Below are positions 44,057-50,000 of a DNA stretch of 64,000 nt, one piece after another. The stretch is taken from the NCBI RefSeq assembly GCF_057098645.1, contig NZ_CM169472.1. The stretch is one strand, 5' to 3'. Numbering within the stretch: position 1 is the stretch's first letter; each line of letters begins with the position of its first letter. Position numbers: made by a program.

Positions 44057-47000
44057 TAAACTCGTATCAGTGCCGGATGGCGATGCTGTCCGGCCTGCTT
44101 ATTAAGATTATCCGCTTTTTATTTTTTCACTTTACCTCCCCTCCCCCGCTGGTTTATTTAATGTTTACCCCCATAACCACATAATCGCGTTACACTATTT
44201 TAATAATTAAGACAGGGAGAAATAAAAATGCGCGTACTGGTTGTTGAAGACAATGCGTTGTTACGTCACCACCTTAAAGTTCAGATTCAGGATGCTGGTC
44301 ATCAGGTCGATGATGCAGAAGATGCCAAAGAAGCCGATTATTATCTCAATGAACATTTACCGGATATTGCGATTGTCGATCTCGGATTGCCAGACGAGGA
44401 CGGTCTGTCACTGATTCGCCGCTGGCGTAGCAATGATGTTTCACTGCCGATTCTGGTATTAACCGCCCGTGAAAGCTGGCAGGACAAAGTCGAAGTATTA
44501 AGTGCCGGTGCTGATGATTACGTGACTAAACCGTTTCATATTGAAGAGGTGATGGCGCGAATGCAGGCATTAATGCGGCGTAATAGCGGCCTGGCTTCAC
44601 AGGTCATTTCGCTCCCCCCGTTTCAGGTTGATCTCTCTCGCCGTGAATTATCTATTAATGACGAAGTGATCAAACTGACCGCGTTCGAATACACCATTAT
44701 GGAAACGTTGATACGCAATAATGGCAAAGTGGTGAGCAAAGATTCGTTAATGCTCCAACTCTATCCGGATGCGGAGCTGCGGGAAAGCCATACCATTGAT
44801 GTACTGATGGGACGTCTGCGCAAAAAAATTCAGGCACAATATCCCCAAGAAGTGATTACCACCGTTCGCGGCCAGGGCTATCTGTTCGAATTGCGCTGAT
44901 GAAAAAATTACTGCGTCTTTTTTTCCCGCTCTCGCTGCGGGTACGTTTTCTGTTGGCAACGGCAGCGGTAGTACTGGTGCTTTCGCTTGCCTACGGAATG
45001 GTCGCGCTGATCGGTTATAGCGTCAGTTTCGATAAAACTACGTTTCGGCTGTTACGTGGCGAGAGCAATCTGTTCTATACCCTTGCGAAGTGGGAAAACA
45101 ATAAGTTGCATGTCGAGTTACCCGAAAATATCGACAAGCAAAGCCCCACCATGACGCTAATTTATGATGAGAACGGGCAGCTTTTATGGGCGCAACGTGA
45201 CGTGCCCTGGCTGATGAAGATGATCCAGCCTGACTGGCTGAAATCGAATGGTTTTCATGAAATTGAAGCGGATGTTAACGATACCAGCCTCTTGCTGAGT
45301 GGAGATCATTCGATACAGCAACAGTTGCAGGAAGTGCGGGAAGATGATGACGACGCGGAGATGACCCACTCGGTGGCGGTAAACGTCTACCCGGCAACAT
45401 CGCGGATGCCAAAGTTAACCATTGTGGTGGTGGATACCATTCCGGTGGAGCTAAAAAGTTCCTATATGGTCTGGAGCTGGTTTATCTATGTGCTCTCAGC
45501 CAATCTGCTGTTAGTGATCCCGCTGCTGTGGGTCGCCGCCTGGTGGAGTTTACGCCCCATCGAAGCCCTGGCAAAAGAAGTCCGCGAACTGGAAGAACAT
45601 AACCGCGAATTGCTCAATCCAGCCACAACGCGAGAACTGACCAGTCTGGTACGAAACCTGAACCGATTGTTAAAAAGCGAACGCGAACGTTACGACAAAT
45701 ACCGTACAACGCTCACCGACCTGACCCATAGTCTGAAAACGCCACTGGCGGTGCTGCAAAGTACGCTGCGTTCTCTGCGTAGTGAAAAGATGAGCGTCAG
45801 TGATGCTGAACCGGTAATGCTGGAGCAAATCAGCCGCATTTCACAGCAAATTGGCTACTACCTGCATCGTGCCAGTATGCGCGGCGGGACATTGCTCAGC
45901 CGCGAGCTGCATCCGGTCGCCCCACTGCTGGACAATCTCACCTCGGCGCTGAACAAAGTGTATCAACGCAAAGGGGTCAATATCTCTCTCGATATTTCGC
46001 CAGAGATCAGCTTTGTCGGTGAGCAGAACGATTTTGTCGAGGTGATGGGCAATGTGCTGGATAATGCCTGTAAATATTGCCTCGAGTTTGTCGAAATTTC
46101 TGCAAGGCAAACCGACGAGCATCTCTATATTGTGGTCGAGGATGATGGACCCGGTATTCCATTAAGCAAGCGAGAGGTCATTTTCGACCGTGGTCAACGG
46201 GTTGATACTTTACGCCCTGGGCAAGGTGTGGGGCTGGCGGTAGCCCGCGAAATCACCGAGCAATATGAGGGTAAAATCGTCGCCGGAGAGTGCATGCTGG
46301 GCGGTGCGCGGATGGAGGTGATTTTTGGTCGCCAGCATTCTGCGCCGAAAGATGAATAAATATGTCCTTTTATCACTATACCAAGTCAAGTCATTGATTT
46401 AATTAAACAATTATCATTGAAAAAGTGCCAAAAATCGCAAATTGACTACACCATTAACTACACCGTTCGGTGCACTGTATGAAACAACGTGGAACAAATA
46501 GACACAAGAAATATACAGGCGGGTAATCTTTCCAGGGGGAAGCGCACCAATTCATGAGGGGCGTTAATGTCGATATGGGGATCCCCATAACGGGGCTACC
46601 GGATTTTTTTTCCGGTTAACATTTAATCAGGCTGGTGGGTTTTACATACCCTTGATCACCGTAATGATGATCCAGATGTGCACCTTTTCCACCAATGGCG
46701 GAAAAGCTCCAACCGTAACGATGATCGCTATGGTTGCCTCGATGGTCTGCGTGGTCATTATGACCATTCAGCCAGTGACCTTAATCAGAATTTTTCGCTA
46801 AAAAATGACGTTGGCCACGTCATCCTGATAGCACAAAATCACGTCGATTTTTAATGAACGGTTAAACCGTCTTTTTGTCACGGTGTGTCACTGGTTGTCA
46901 CTCTCCGTCACGATTGAGGTGGTGGTCATTCTGCCCGACCGCGCATTTTTGCGCTATCGGGAATATAAAACAGTTACCGCCGTCAGCTACCCAGCTCAGA

Positions 47001-50000
47001 ATTGAGCCGCCTTTTAATCAACAAGTTACCGCCGTAACCGCTCCGGCTTCTTCCAGTGGTACGTTATTTTCGCCTTCTCCCGATACAGTTCAACGCGGCG
47101 ATTGTAGGCCAGCATTTCCAGAACGCGGATCCGTATGTCGCGCATATCCGCATCATTAAGCTGGATACCATCACGGCGCATCACCTCAGCAACAACACGC
47201 GCATAATTTTCGGCTGTCACGCTGTCCGGCTGCGTGGTCTGTTCGTCAGCCTGCTGGCTGATTCCAGAGACGCGGCGGATTAATCGCAGTATTTCTGCTT
47301 CTGTCATGCTGCTGACCTCATTACACCCCGCTAAATTCTTCCAGTTTCTGGCGGTGGCTGTCGCTTATATCAAAAGCAAAATCCTCATGCTCTGCCTGGA
47401 ATGTACCAAACGCCATCAGCGCCGCCACGCTCGGGTCTATCTTGTTCGGTGATTTTTTCTTGTTCGGCTTGATATTGGCGTTCGCGTCACTCTGCATCAC
47501 GACGTTACTCATCGACCAGGACAACACCGGATCGCTACGATGCACAATCACCCTGCGGTTAACAAAAACTTCGAACGATTTCGCCGCCGGACTGAATCTG
47601 AGGTAGGTTTGCGGGAACGGCTCCACCTCAAAGCCTGCCCCCTGTAATTGCGTCCTGAGATGCGTGGCGTTCCACGTATCAAAGCCCACCAGCCTGATAT
47701 TAAATTTCTCCGCATCCTGCATGATGTCATCTCTGATCCGGTCGTAATCAATGCAGTCACCTGGCGTTGTGCGTATCCAGCCCGCTTTAGCCCACTGGCG
47801 ATAGACAGCGCGGTTTTTATTGGCGGGGTTCTGTAGCTGGAACTCCGGCAGATAATGACGGGAAACCAGCATGATATTTTTACCGACCGGAAAGGCATAG
47901 CACACGCTGGAAATATCGCTGGTTGATGATAAGTCCAGCCCCGCGTAACACTCCTGCCCGTGTAAATCTTCCTCCGTGAACGTTCCGGCACACTCAGCCC
48001 ATGCGCCGTTACCCATCCACGGGGTAGCCCCCTGGCACCAGATATTAAATCGCTTTGTCATCATCTCCACCCATTGCGACGGAATACCCCGCGCTTTCTG
48101 GATGGTTGAGGCCAGTTTTTCACGATCCACGGAAACATCGATGTTAGGGTTAGCCTTTATCCACATCGCCGGATCATCAACCTCGTTTTCGTCGTCCAGT
48201 TCGTAAATCAGTACAAAAATTGAATCGTTGACCTCTTCGCCGTCCAGGATCTGGCAGCAATAATCATAGTGCTGCTTACAGGCTGAAACGACGTTACTGC
48301 CCGATGTGGTAATGGCAAATAACAGCCCTTCGGGACGTGCGCCCATCCCCAGCTCAAGCGCGGAATAAACGCCGTTATCGGGGTGTAGGTGGTATTCGTC
48401 CACGATGGAAAGGCTTGGGTTTGTGCCCTCGATGGTTGCCGCTTTTGCTGCCAGCGGCTTTAACAGGCTGTTGCTTTTCGGGTGCATCACCTTGTGGGCC
48501 TGAATATTCACCCGCCTGCGTAACGGTCGGGATAAAAGGCACATCTGACGCGCATCATCAAAAACGATCCGCGCCTGGTCACGGCTCACCGCTGCGGTGT
48601 AAATATCCTGCTGCCCGTTCTCCATAATCAGAAACCAGTTAGCCAGAATCGCGGCGGTCGTGGATTTCGCATTTTTGCGCGGCACTTCGATAAAGGCGCT
48701 CGTGTATTTGCGCCGTCCGGTGGCCTTAACCTTAAAGCCGAGGATGCACGCAAAGGCGAACTGCTGCCACGGCTCCAGCTCAATGGGTCTGCCACGCATC
48801 GGTCCTTTTACGTGCGGGCACACCCTGGAAAAGGCAATAAACCGCTCCACAACCTCACGATCGAACGTGTAAAGGGGGCTTTTAAGGTCCGAAAAGTACC
48901 GTTTAACAGCCTGTTTTAACCGTTTACAGGCCGGAATTTTGCCCGTTTTTACGTCTTCTGCGTACTTATTCCAGGCGGTCAAGCTCGTCCTCTTCTTCTG
49001 TTTCCGGTGGATTTTTACGGCGGCTTATCGGGTCAAAACCGAGCAAGGAGGCCATTTTTATCATCACTCTTTCAGCGTCGGATTTTGCGCTTAATGCGGG
49101 GTTTCTGCTCTCGCCGCCCTGACTGTTAACAATGCTGAACCCGCGCGCCGCAAGGTCTGCAACGGCTTTCCGGTAAATGGAGTAGTTGACGCAATACAGT
49201 TCCAGATTGCTCCAGTCGGCGGGGGTCAGGTCTCCCCGTTCCGCAAGCTGCCGCGATTTTTCCCGCCACTGCTTCACGGCGATATCATCCAGGTAGGCGG
49301 GGGCTTTCGGTGGTCTTGCCATGCTTATTTTTCGTCAGATTATTTTTCAAAAAATTCCCGTGCATAAAAATTTGAGGAGGCGTTCGGTGCCCGGCGGGGT
49401 CGGGTTTGTCCTGAAAACGCCCCCCACCCCGTCATACAGCCTCATCAGCGATTGCGGAAACATTCCATAACCTCGCGGTCACGGTCGGTTAATCGCTTCG
49501 CTGTGATGCGTTCTGCGCGTCCTGACGCTTTATCTTTATGCCCTGTTTCCTGTGTCTTCCATGCGTCACGCTGCCTTATAAGTCCACGGATAAGGCGGTT
49601 TTGTTCCCGCTCATTCATCAGCGTCATACATCCAGTTATTGCGGTTAGCGGCCCGTTCTTCCTCTTCATGAAATCCACCTGCGGCACGCTTGCTTTTTGT
49701 TGCCGGATCAAGCCATTTCGTTTTCTGGTTATGACACGCCTGGCACAATGGTTGATGGTTCCATTCGGGCCAGAAGAGAACATCATCACCGCCATTAATC
49801 GGGATAATGTGATCCACCACCACGGCGGGCGTATATATCCCCTTCTCAAGGCATCGCACGCATAACGGGTTTTTACTCAGATACATGGCGCGGTATTTGT
49901 CCCACTGTCTGGAGTACCCACGCGCGCGGCGGTGTCCTCGTCTGGCATCCTCTGCACGCCATGCCGCCCGCCTGTGCTCCTCACACTTGCCGGACTTCAC

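Follow-up and report, generated by a model that had tools for sequence, protein, structure and literature searches.

The locus raises the question of what the short, phased repeats between phoQ and the last gene of an inserted island are for, within a window of 64,000 nucleotides, namely the whole stretch of DNA that was analyzed. The first-pass annotation had placed the left junction of the island in a non-coding stretch (46360-47025) and had considered the spacing of four GTCAC pentamers there typical of arm-type recombinase sites or of recognition repeats of the terminase small subunit (TerS). We consider it fairly probable that 46368-47025 represents the end, distal to the integrase, of a capsid-forming phage satellite (cf-PICI), in which an attachment arm, AACAA regulator boxes, a separate GTCAC module, and palindromes are combined. 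The left-junction finding is largely ordinary, with one exception, the GTCAC array.

The island in the window is a cf-PICI and a close relative of EcCIEDL933, the prototype of the capsid-forming PICIs (Alqurainy et al. 10.1101/2022.09.08.507074; He et al. 10.1101/2025.02.11.637232), which in EDL933 is inserted between roxA and phoQ and whose TerS protein is identical to that of the window island. The packaging genes are ordered as capsid, protease, portal, head closure, connector, HNH, TerS (P27 family), TerL, and p93. The annotation of a near-identical record, L001, was transferred to the window by a shift of +26299; in this complete relative, int and alpA are placed likewise, and int is truncated in the window by the window end at 64000. 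The last island gene, p93 (47026..47307, minus strand; phrog_1561), encodes 93 aa, the predicted structure of which (pLDDT 69) gave no structural match at E <= 0.001 and no recognizable DNA-binding fold.

The attL core AAATATGTCC (46358..46367) overlaps the phoQ stop codon (46357-46359), and the first island base is 46368, directly 3' of the core. The attB core at phoQ/roxA, a site common to the window island and EcCIEDL933, is likewise AAATATGTCC, and the core 10-mer was also found at attR in the complete relatives L001 and L132. When 5426 E. coli genomes were searched, core-genome homology ended at 46361-46367 in most of the matching genomes, and the empty site in E24377A reads GATGAATAAATATGTCC and, across the boundary, ATACTTCACGC (also written as ...GAATAAATATGTCC before ATACTTCACGC). 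Therefore, all reported motifs are island DNA and not core chromosome, the position of the left junction is supported, and the objection that the motifs might belong to core DNA present in strains without the island fails. In L001, no gene is annotated in the stretch 46360-47025.

The left end of the window island is mostly an ordinary integration arm. The attachment-site arm covers about 230 bp (46368-46590), in which two ACTACACC repeats are followed by an AACAA box, and it includes a conserved block, M1 (46396..46589, bounded by ATTGATTTAATTAAA and GGGGATCCCCATA), which is present in 1018 of the 5426 E. coli genomes and for which neither an Rfam family nor a phage match was found. From the first ACTACACC to GGGGATCCCCATA, the arm is nearly invariant across 12 island variants with differing cargo, whose integration sites include phoQ, tqsA, yifB, and others; in islands at other sites, the arm block occurs with the identical AlpA WP_000953271.1 and an integrase of the same length. 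The element ACTACACC-ATTA-ACTACACC (46445..46464, plus strand), detected as a 12-bp tandem repeat, provides candidate integrase arm-type sites. L001 carries only four copies of ACTACACC, one same-orientation pair per arm (20146/20158 and 35999/36011), and the pairs lie about 80-150 bp from the core on both arms; shuffled L001 contained a mean of 0.58 copies, and four copies were reached in 0 of 100 shuffles. In complete relatives, a module of about 60 bp, consisting of the ACTACACC pair and the AACAA box, is repeated in the same orientation on the integrase-side arm just upstream of int. Judging from this placement, the ACTACACC repeats would be integrase arm-type sites, and the pair appears to be a better arm-site candidate than the GTCAC array.

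A 15-bp motif, AACAACGTGGAACAA, had also been noticed both in the left arm and upstream of the capsid gene, and a shared regulatory element had been suggested. Both copies are real, although the left one lies at 46483-46497 and not, as had been given, at 46484-46498; the second (53878-53892) precedes the capsid start (53661) by 217 bp (L001 annotation, +26299). AACAACGTGGAACAA belongs to a more extensive family of AACAA boxes phased at 10 bp, which the first reading had overlooked. The pair AACAA-N5-AACAA occurs 5-7 times per island and in four places only: on each of the two arms, ahead of the capsid operon, and in the int-alpA interval. The flanking 46 kb of chromosome contain 0 occurrences, and the count per shuffle is 0.03. 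This restriction to regulatory places, with none in the flanking chromosome, supports the suggestion of a shared regulatory element. The left-arm pair (46483..46497, plus strand), a candidate AlpA site, has its right-arm counterpart in L001 at 36037-36061, just upstream of int. Three boxes at 10-bp spacing (53878..53902, plus strand) lie between the terminator of a perC-like gene (53926-53943, minus strand) and the capsid gene, and five more (63097..63141, minus strand), also spaced at 10 bp, are flanked by the int stop codon (63189) on one side and by alpA (62626-62814, minus strand) on the other. At the capsid-side boxes, a terminator lies upstream, and a sigma-70 consensus promoter was looked for there and not found.

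The product of alpA, with a length of 62 aa, matches PF05930 (E = 5e-17). PICI induction and transfer need AlpA (10.1101/2022.09.08.507074), and PMC11773190, citing PMC6092414, describes AlpA as a positive autoregulator that activates its own gene. The AACAA boxes are most likely the operator of AlpA, so that one island regulator may act in both excision and activation; a single protein would then couple excision, its own expression, and late-operon expression. The operator reading is weakened by the int-alpA boxes, whose orientation is opposite to that of alpA and whose distance upstream of this gene is about 290 bp. It is also weakened by L132, a PICI that shares the arms but is not capsid-forming: no strict AACAA pair precedes its capsid-like gene. 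The assignments of ACTACACC to the integrase and of AACAA to AlpA have motif positions as their sole basis, and the two could be swapped, with AACAA bound by the N-terminal domain of the integrase and ACTACACC by AlpA. Such an exchange would agree with the occurrence of both motifs on both arms and with the location of the right-arm AACAA boxes just upstream of int, as binding close to the promoter of its own gene is a further property of some integrases, e.g., the P4 integrase. However, AlpA activates its own promoter (PMC11773190), the boxes that precede alpA and the capsid operon are AACAA boxes without ACTACACC, and an integrase site at the capsid promoter would have no obvious role; the exchange is thus somewhat unlikely.

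Between the arm and the array, the 41-codon minus-strand ORF noted earlier exists (46642..46767). Its status as a gene is not supported: no family match was found, and in relatives indels of 2 nt and 5 nt disrupt the frame. The micro-ORF is a side effect of the palindrome run. It lies within a block, M2 (46640..46775), of 3-4 imperfect palindromes or hairpins, including GGTCATTATGACC at 46753-46765, for which consensus hairpins with a few compensatory changes were found in four variants and which is entirely deleted in L026 and L045. A Chi site, GCTGGTGG (46631..46638, plus strand), is kept in most variants carrying that part of the block. The intrinsic terminator of the packaging operon (46800..46823, minus strand; ATGACGT-GGCCA-ACGTCAT, then U6) was read directly from the sequence and forms a hairpin in both the MFE and centroid folds, and a simple scanner did not list it. 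A terminator-like hairpin (46858..46876, plus strand) adjoins the GTCAC array, and a degenerate duplicate of the p93 3' end (46965..46996, repeat family D10) is a scar of module shuffling; EcCIEDL933 contains about six such p93 3'-end scars.

The GTCAC array module (46866..46911, plus strand) consists of ACCGTCTTTTT and, behind it, four (T)GTCAC units (46877, 46887, 46897, and 46907), which confirms the exact 10-bp phasing reported at first. It is the sole match in the window even with up to two mismatches allowed, and 0 of 100 shuffles matched. The array is a separate module of 46-56 bp between the stop codon of p93 and the operon terminator, lying 10-310 bp past the stop codon in all 23 array loci, and its identity is 96-98% compared with 79% for p93, the other flank being unalignable. 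Related islands carry three to five GTCAC units, the number changing by exact 10-bp steps, and the substitutions are nearly confined to the spacers, a small excess of about four spacer sites versus one core site. The module could have spread horizontally in recent times, which would explain the high identity of the array in place of purifying selection.

The array is absent from EcCIEDL933, L132, L133, and L004, and it is absent even where the same AlpA, an integrase of the same length, and an identical TerS are present. Because it is optional among islands, the array does not serve as an integrase arm site or as a terminase site, and because EcCIEDL933 lacks it, the life cycle of the satellite itself does not depend on it. 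The array is probably a landing pad for multiple copies of a DNA-binding protein on one helix face, with an accessory function.

Both functions first proposed for the array must be weighed against this evidence. Helical-turn-phased direct repeats between the last gene and the junction would suit integrase arm-type sites, but the array is present on just one arm, at a distance of 510 bp from the core, it is missing at the same site with an integrase of the same length (L132, L004, and EcCIEDL933), and the ACTACACC pairs match the expected arm-site pattern better, leaving this function scarcely credible. A cos/pac recognition site of the island TerS would agree with the location of the array near terS and terL, with the use of phased short repeats by some terminases, e.g., those of SPP1 and P1, and with an unrelated high-GC group of small elements in which the terL stop codon is directly followed by 4-8 GTCAC units and then by the portal gene. 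However, the identical TerS WP_000113645.1 is found in array-bearing islands (L001 and L009) as well as in islands that lack the array (L133 and EcCIEDL933, the latter being transfer-proficient), the HNH proteins are near-identical, with WP_001145905.1 common to L001 (array) and L133 (no array), and the HK97 TerS, which belongs to the same Pfam family, has a single binding site of 15 bp, located 15 bp from the cut. A TerS site is already largely refuted and very improbable. The array was also found in the satellites L007 and L008, which are without such a TerS. The GC-rich spacer with an A/T tract upstream of terS (49323-49444), which is 96% conserved, the array-less L133 included, is a better cos candidate.

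Quite unlikely is a copy of the origin iterons of a helper or competitor phage, by which the island would bind the replication initiator (replisome organizer) of that phage, either to titrate it and so interfere with the phage or to sense or exploit it. An IMG/VR scan for GTCAC(N5) x4 gave at least 120 loci, and among the matches listed, the largest class lies inside replisome-organizer or primosomal-protein-I-like initiator genes of phages of E. coli, Salmonella, Pseudomonas, and Aeromonas, with the same (T)GTCAC core, 4-6 units, and 10-11 bp spacing, in some cases with an A/T-rich repeat tract behind the array. The incompatibility that cloned plasmid iterons cause is comparable to interference by iteron copies, and the dispensability of the array for the satellite's own cycle points in the same direction. 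The array region also flanks the packaging operon, where it is variable with expected immune functions according to He et al. (10.1101/2025.02.11.637232). Nevertheless, the search pattern fits any 10-bp tandem repeat containing GTCAC, the flanking consensus is TGTCAC[T/G]G in satellites versus TGTCACGAC in phages, the cf-PICI helpers HK106 and HK446 are not among the 26 phage records with the initiator N-terminal domain, and array satellites and initiator prophages share 0 genome IDs (contig names, among the IMG/VR matches listed). A functionless tandem repeat, spread by recombination in a shuffling-prone, repeat-rich 3' region, is also unlikely: the region is mosaic with p93 3'-end scars, in L008 the array cassette lies between 21-bp direct repeats of GTGGTCATTATGACCATTCAG, and the array is dispensable and varies from three to five copies, but 46 bp with 1-2 differences stand beside a gene of 79% identity (p ~3e-4 if diverging alike, by our own calculation), perfect cores are kept amid unrelated flanks, and a 46-bp piece without flanking homology is not movable by homologous recombination. 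As for a binding site of the neighboring p93, the gene and its cis site would travel together as sopB-sopC or parB-parS do, and this is suggested by the array following p93 in 23/23 loci despite p93 identity down to 57% and by a conserved basic C-terminal tail, W-KKPERLRR, in p93. Such a pairing is rather doubtful, as p93 occurs without the array in many islands, the functional EcCIEDL933 included, array presence does not sort the p93 variants, and neither a DNA-binding family nor a fold was found for p93.

Compared with EcCIEDL933, the window island has the same phoQ/roxA site, the same order of the HTH/AlpA-like, capsid, protease, portal, HNH, TerS, TerL, and p93 genes, and the same left-arm block, including the AACAA box. 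It differs in IS21-type and IS110-type insertions, in a replication module with a RepA-helicase instead of the DUF927 protein of EcCIEDL933, and in a terminal non-coding region of 660 bp with the array, compared with 856 bp without it. The array resembles terminase sites (the lambda cosB R sites, EcCICFT073 cos1/cos2 with Rpp, and the HK97 TerS site) in being a short site near terminase genes, but its presence does not track the TerS protein. In classical PICIs at the same attB, two lambda-type cosN sequences flank a TerS-like gene (PMC6739421); lambda cosN was searched for in the window island, and none was found. In lambda O/ori, SPP1 G38P, and the replisome-organizer genes, origin iterons lie inside initiator genes, and the latter share the (T)GTCAC core and phasing, whereas the satellite array is non-coding, with no adjoining replication gene and no adjacent A/T-rich unwinding tract.

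As with the attachment sites of lambda (attP), P4 with Vis, and CP4-57 with AlpA/IntA, the window island has a short core with direct-repeat arms on both sides, and a small AlpA/Vis-family protein with a helix-turn-helix is encoded beside int. Compared with these tyrosine-integrase systems, the window island differs in having the same composite module on both arms, and its putative excision-protein boxes also occur at two sites off the arms. In P2 Cox, HP1 Cox ("cox boxes"), and P4 Vis, short boxes phased by the helical turn at the attachment site and at promoters couple excision with transcription. The box of the window island differs from these, being AACAA and often ACAACGTGNAACAA, and the candidate protein is a 62-aa PF05930 AlpA, whose role, according to the PICI literature, is activation and not repression.

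We found that the DNA between phoQ and the last island gene is the left junction of the island, as the first-pass annotation had read it. The phoQ gene ends at 46359, and in a megablast comparison with 5426 complete E. coli genomes the alignment of most matching genomes ends at 46361-46367, with only 50 of the 5426 containing most of 46300-47100. The empty site in E24377A reads GATGAATAAATATGTCC|ATACTTCACGC, followed by roxA, and AAATATGTCC is common to both island ends in L001, a near-identical complete relative. Based on this evidence, the attL core was placed at 46358-46367 and the start of the island at 46368. 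Comparison with the empty site also put the repeated motifs of this region in island DNA rather than in core chromosomal DNA.

The first 230 bp of the island is its attachment-site arm, namely the ordinary integrase-distal arm of a known satellite family. An arm block of about 46396-46589 was delimited by aligning islands that differ in cargo and integration site (phoQ, tqsA, yifB, yejO, and the clpS side), and it was found in 1018 of the 5426 E. coli genomes; between the first ACTACACC and GGGGATCCCCATA, the sequence shows almost no variation among 12 island variants. ACTACACC occurs twice in this block, at 46445 and 46457, 12 bp apart. In L001, the octamer is present only four times, as one same-orientation pair per arm (shuffled sequences had a mean of 0.58, and none reached four), and each arm carries the ACTACACC pair, then TCGKTGCAC, then ACAACGTGRAACAA. 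L133, an island at the tqsA site, shares this arm module and has an identical AlpA (WP_000953271.1) and an integrase of the same length. We therefore infer that ACTACACC is a candidate integrase-binding arm site, and the arms of this island have the standard architecture of tyrosine-integrase attachment sites with arm-type sites. The inner edge of the invariant block is the palindrome ATGGGGATCCCCAT (46577-46589), at which short ORFs begin on both strands; one of them, a 44-aa ORF at 46454..46588 on the minus strand, has gained a stop codon in the variants L026 and L045.

The 15-mer AACAACGTGGAACAA, suggested earlier to be a regulatory element shared with the region upstream of the capsid gene, proved to be one of a set of AACAA boxes at regulatory places. 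Its second copy lies at 53878-53892 as noted before, and its first copy is at 46483-46497, one base to the left of the original position; two more copies with 2 mismatches occur on the other strand at 63107 and 63127. The pattern AACAA-N5-AACAA was observed 5-7 times per island in four islands and at constant places: the left arm, the region upstream of the capsid gene (three boxes at 53878-53902, restricted to capsid-forming islands), the spacer between int and alpA (as many as five boxes with 10-bp spacing at 63097-63141), and the right arm. The 46-kb chromosomal part of the window contains no instance, and shuffled islands averaged 0.03 instances.

Concerning the protein that may recognize these boxes, published work describes AlpA as being needed for the induction and transfer of these islands (10.1101/2022.09.08.507074) and as activating its own promoter (PMC11773190, citing PMC6092414); the passages of PICI papers retrieved by keyword contained no mention of an AlpA-binding DNA motif or of the attachment-site layout. 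The boxes stand where an AlpA operator would be expected, in both arms and at the int-alpA spacer, as well as upstream of the capsid operon. From these positions together with the published roles, the boxes were assigned to AlpA, of which they are a candidate operator inferred from position. The terminator closing the perC-like gene (53926-53943, minus strand) lies directly upstream of the capsid-side boxes, and no consensus sigma-70 promoter was found in this box region, which fits an activator-dependent start. Like Cox and Vis proteins, AlpA would have a double role, at promoters as well as at the attachment site. Against this assignment, however, the boxes near alpA are in the opposite direction and precede this gene by about 290 bp, and the non-capsid-forming PICI L132 is without the strict pair at its capsid-like gene; the arm motifs could also be swapped, with AACAA and ACTACACC each assigned the wrong way round. 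The AACAA set provides a concrete and testable operator candidate that covers the two arms, the alpA upstream region, and the capsid operon, and, if it is the AlpA operator, it would explain how one small protein could switch on excision and capsid production together. This satellite family is under active study, and the set is a useful candidate AlpA operator for its master regulator.

The Pseudomonas protein also named AlpA, a Q-like antiterminator, was considered as the same protein and rejected, as the name alone is shared: the island AlpA has 62 aa and belongs to PF05930. Pseudomonas AlpA is much larger, extending beyond residue 140, with an N-terminal ring, a C-terminal helix-turn-helix, and DNA contacts up to H142, and its target is a GGGACG sequence located between the -35 and -10 elements (PMC9371919). 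The two architectures are unrelated.

Direct inspection confirmed the GTCAC units at 46877, 46887, 46897, and 46907, an array located 115 bp past the stop codon of p93, the last island gene (93 aa). With 2 mismatches allowed, this is the sole place in 64 kb where GTCAC occurs four times at 10-bp spacing, and none was obtained in 100 shuffles. A weaker terminator-like plus-strand hairpin abuts the array, and beyond the array lies a strong hairpin on the minus strand, followed by a U6 tail (46800-46823), which should end the packaging operon. In a blastn search, 46780-47025 was found in part or whole in 275 E. coli genomes, many of the matches spanning only ~47 bp of ACCGTCTTTTT(GTCAC N5)n. In 23 of the 23 loci from E. 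coli records and IMG/VR contigs, across which p93 identity ranges from 57 to 100%, the array follows the stop codon of p93 at a distance of 10-310 bp. Between the window and the loci L006 and L007, the module is 96-98% identical, p93 is 79% identical, and the other flank is unalignable; by our calculation, module differences this few at such p93 divergence have a probability of about 3e-4. The number of units among variants is 3, 4, or 5 and changes in exact 10-bp steps, with substitutions confined to the spacers except for one degenerate fifth unit. These data indicate that the GTCAC module is a separate, optional, and unusually well-conserved element.

Neither of the functions that the first-pass annotation had proposed for the phased repeats, integrase arm-type sites or terminase small-subunit (TerS) recognition, was supported. 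Arm sites are part of the functional attP, within a few hundred bp of the core and usually in both arms, as the ACTACACC pairs are, whereas the array is 510 bp away from the core and confined to one arm; such sites should also accompany every element with the same integrase and site, and the array is missing from L132, L004, and EcCIEDL933 (the prototype cf-PICI), which all occupy the same attB. As for packaging, the identical TerS WP_000113645.1 occurs with the array in L001 and L009 and without it in L133 and EcCIEDL933, the latter being experimentally transferable though array-less, and L007 and L008 have the array without this TerS. The HK97 TerS, which is of the same family as the island TerS, binds one 15-bp site, in contrast to the repeat array here. 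A better candidate cos than the array, and likely the cos of the island, is the spacer upstream of terS (49323-49444), in which a GC-rich segment (GACGGGGTGGGGGGCG...CCCGACCCCGCCGGGC) precedes A/T tracts and which is 96% conserved among capsid-forming islands, the array-less L133 included. Iterons of the island's own replication origin were likewise rejected for the array, which sits between p93 and terminators, some 8 kb away from the gene for the RepA helicase, and has no A/T-rich repeat tract beside it; the only other short-period repeats in the island are IS21 terminal repeats. Among host proteins with GTCAC-like sites, MatP matS is an inverted and not a direct repeat, unlike the GTCAC units, PhoB boxes (CTGTCAT) differ in their 11-bp period and A/T spacers, and EcoAI (GAG N7 GTCA) does not fit the array.

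A further reading of the array concerns phage replication. A scan of IMG/VR for GTCAC(N5) x4 gave at least 120 loci, and, satellites aside, the largest class among the matches listed was arrays within phage replication-initiator genes (L020, L022, L024, L025, L030, L040, L054, and others), whose products carry a DnaT domain and the annotation replisome organizer, primosomal protein I, or DNA replication protein O, in phages of E. coli, Salmonella, Pseudomonas, and Aeromonas; Evi, Tritos, and Rac-type phages are examples that encode this initiator. These arrays often form two clusters, and the second cluster is followed by an A/T-rich tract of GATAAAGATACAGA-type repeats. They share the design of lambda, whose origin is within the initiator gene, and have the appearance of origins contained in the gene for their own initiator. 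Units of (T)GTCAC phased at 10 bp are thus a frequent kind of origin iteron, which the array of the satellite could imitate. The array might then be a decoy phage origin that binds the replication initiator of a helper or competitor phage, although we regard this as quite improbable; it would be a non-coding, DNA-only means of interference with phage replication, or of phage sensing. The location of the array in a variable slot where satellites are expected to keep immune cargo favors such a decoy, but the satellite and phage arrays share the core only, the known helpers HK106 and HK446 are not among the phages with this initiator domain, and no satellite-prophage co-occurrence was seen among the IMG/VR matches listed. 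A literature search for GTCAC iterons returned nothing relevant. If the array binds a phage replication protein, satellite and phage would interact in a new way that involves no coding sequence; if not, what is described here is an ordinary island junction. In a third class of matches, at least 14 high-GC IMG/VR contigs of 5-13 kb (L028, L046, L051, L067, L073, L090, L113, L124, and others) carry a GTCAC array after terL, in the order HTH_17, HNH, TerS, TerL, 4-8 GTCACCGTTT units, portal, and protease-capsid fusion. They may be capsid-forming satellites of another lineage and keep a packaging-linked role conceivable in general, although they do not rescue the terminase reading for this island.

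A lambda-type cos, considered from the likeness of GGGGATCCCCATAACGGGGC to the lambda cos region, was rejected because GGGCGGCGACCT within 2 mismatches is not above chance in the window island. The classical (non-capsid-forming) PICIs L002 and L004, at phoQ, have two exact lambda cosN copies outside the terminal region and in opposite orientation, which flank a TerS-like gene in L002 (2507-2518 and 3374-3385) and a hypothetical gene in the equivalent position in L004 (2460-2471 and 3219-3230). These pairs match the published cos1/cos2 arrangement of EcCICFT073; a 45-kb CFT073 region taken for EcCICFT073 proved to be a lambdoid prophage at icd.

The protein p93 belongs to a narrow enterobacterial family of 37 representatives, and its predicted fold is three helices, at modest confidence (pLDDT 69). 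It had no Foldseek match at E <= 0.001, no family match, and no PDB sequence match, and its identification as Rpp was rejected on the lack of a PDB sequence match to RppC. The homologous-protein search returned near-identical E. coli proteins only, and the search of genome contigs gave one spurious locus only. The region downstream of p93 is a mosaic, with a scar of the p93 3' end at 46965-46996. In L008, a cassette lies between 21-bp direct repeats. In the terminal region of EcCIEDL933 (L237 34761-35616), the motif of the p93 3' end (ATCAACNRGTTACCGC) recurs about six times in degenerate form, each time beside a short hairpin and at intervals of roughly 45-100 bp, in the stretch that separates p93 from the arm block; TRF did not report these copies as a tandem repeat. 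A 102-bp piece of L005 (2501-2602, E. coli 2012EL-2448) matches 46962-47063 of the window at 92% identity; it comprises the p93 3' end and downstream sequence and lies in a lambdoid prophage, between the antiterminator Q gene and perC-like genes.

The 41-codon minus-strand ORF pointed out at 46642..46767 is present in the sequence but was not supported as a gene. The segment 46640-46775 consists of successive imperfect palindromes, in which a comparison of four variants shows a few compensatory changes; because of the palindromes, ORFs appear on both of its strands. Indels of 2 nt and 5 nt in the variants O157 and PV0838 break the conserved frame expected of a small protein or type I toxin, L026 and L045 have lost the segment by deletion, and the micro-ORF has no Pfam or PHROG match.

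The window copy of the island is enlarged by two IS elements within the replication/regulation region, an IS21-family element (istA/istB) at ~56534-59158, whose multiple terminal repeats GATGCCAAAnnGTGATCG occupy 59026-59158, and an IS110-family transposase at 60130-61326; its integrase gene runs past the window end. With these insertions, this copy may be defective or not mobilisable. The repeats at 59044-59158, considered as origin iterons of the island, are actually the multiple terminal repeats of the IS21-family element (inverted repeat; IstA/IstB). Three TTTTNCNCCTCACTTTT copies with 83-85 bp spacing lie directly downstream of the RepA-helicase gene (54882-55093) and are a candidate replication origin of the island. 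Chi sites (GCTGGTGG), counted on both strands, number 17 in the 17.6 kb island (46368-64000) and 5 in the 46 kb of flanking chromosome; the L001 island (20060-36160) has 18 in 16 kb, and Chi richness was also examined in L132 and L133. This abundance may shield linear or rolling-circle satellite DNA against RecBCD. Since the whole island is Chi-rich on both strands, the idea that the facing Chi sites at 46631 and 47686 bracket a possible cos was dropped. A blastn search of 46368-47025 against the phage collection gave no match, and an Rfam scan of 46000-64000 was empty at E <= 1, so no known RNA family was recognized there.

The gene content identifies the island as a cf-PICI, since the L001 annotation and the Pfam matches in the window comprise int, alpA, a replication module, and all components of an HK97-type head/packaging module (capsid, protease, portal, connectors, HNH, TerS, and TerL). 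In L001 (JNE141411; window = L001 + 26299), the genes from right to left are integrase, a 62-aa helix-turn-helix protein, ash-like, icd-like, RepA-family helicase, ssb, a perC-like gene, major capsid, HK97 protease, portal, head closure, connector, HNH, a small hypothetical gene, P27-family TerS, TerL, and the hypothetical p93, followed by 660 bp free of genes up to phoQ; the annotation of the JNE141411 int marks it as frameshifted, and the cf-PICI of O157:H7 F6321 is an example of an intact island with the array. The Pfam matches in the window are TerS (PF05119), HNH, PerC, AAA_25 helicase, integrase, and AlpA (PF05930, E = 5e-17), and no tail or lysis genes are annotated in L001, L133, or EcCIEDL933. 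The L001 island, of about 16 kb, is within the size of about 10-19 kb expected of cf-PICIs and, as expected too, has a dedicated attachment site. Helper-phage induction and transfer in its own small capsids have been demonstrated for EcCIEDL933 only, and capsid-forming PICIs have the same layout as this island (10.1101/2022.09.08.507074). The attB of the window and L001 island is that of EcCIEDL933, which in EDL933 occupies the same exact insertion site and encodes a TerS identical to that of L001 (WP_000113645.1).
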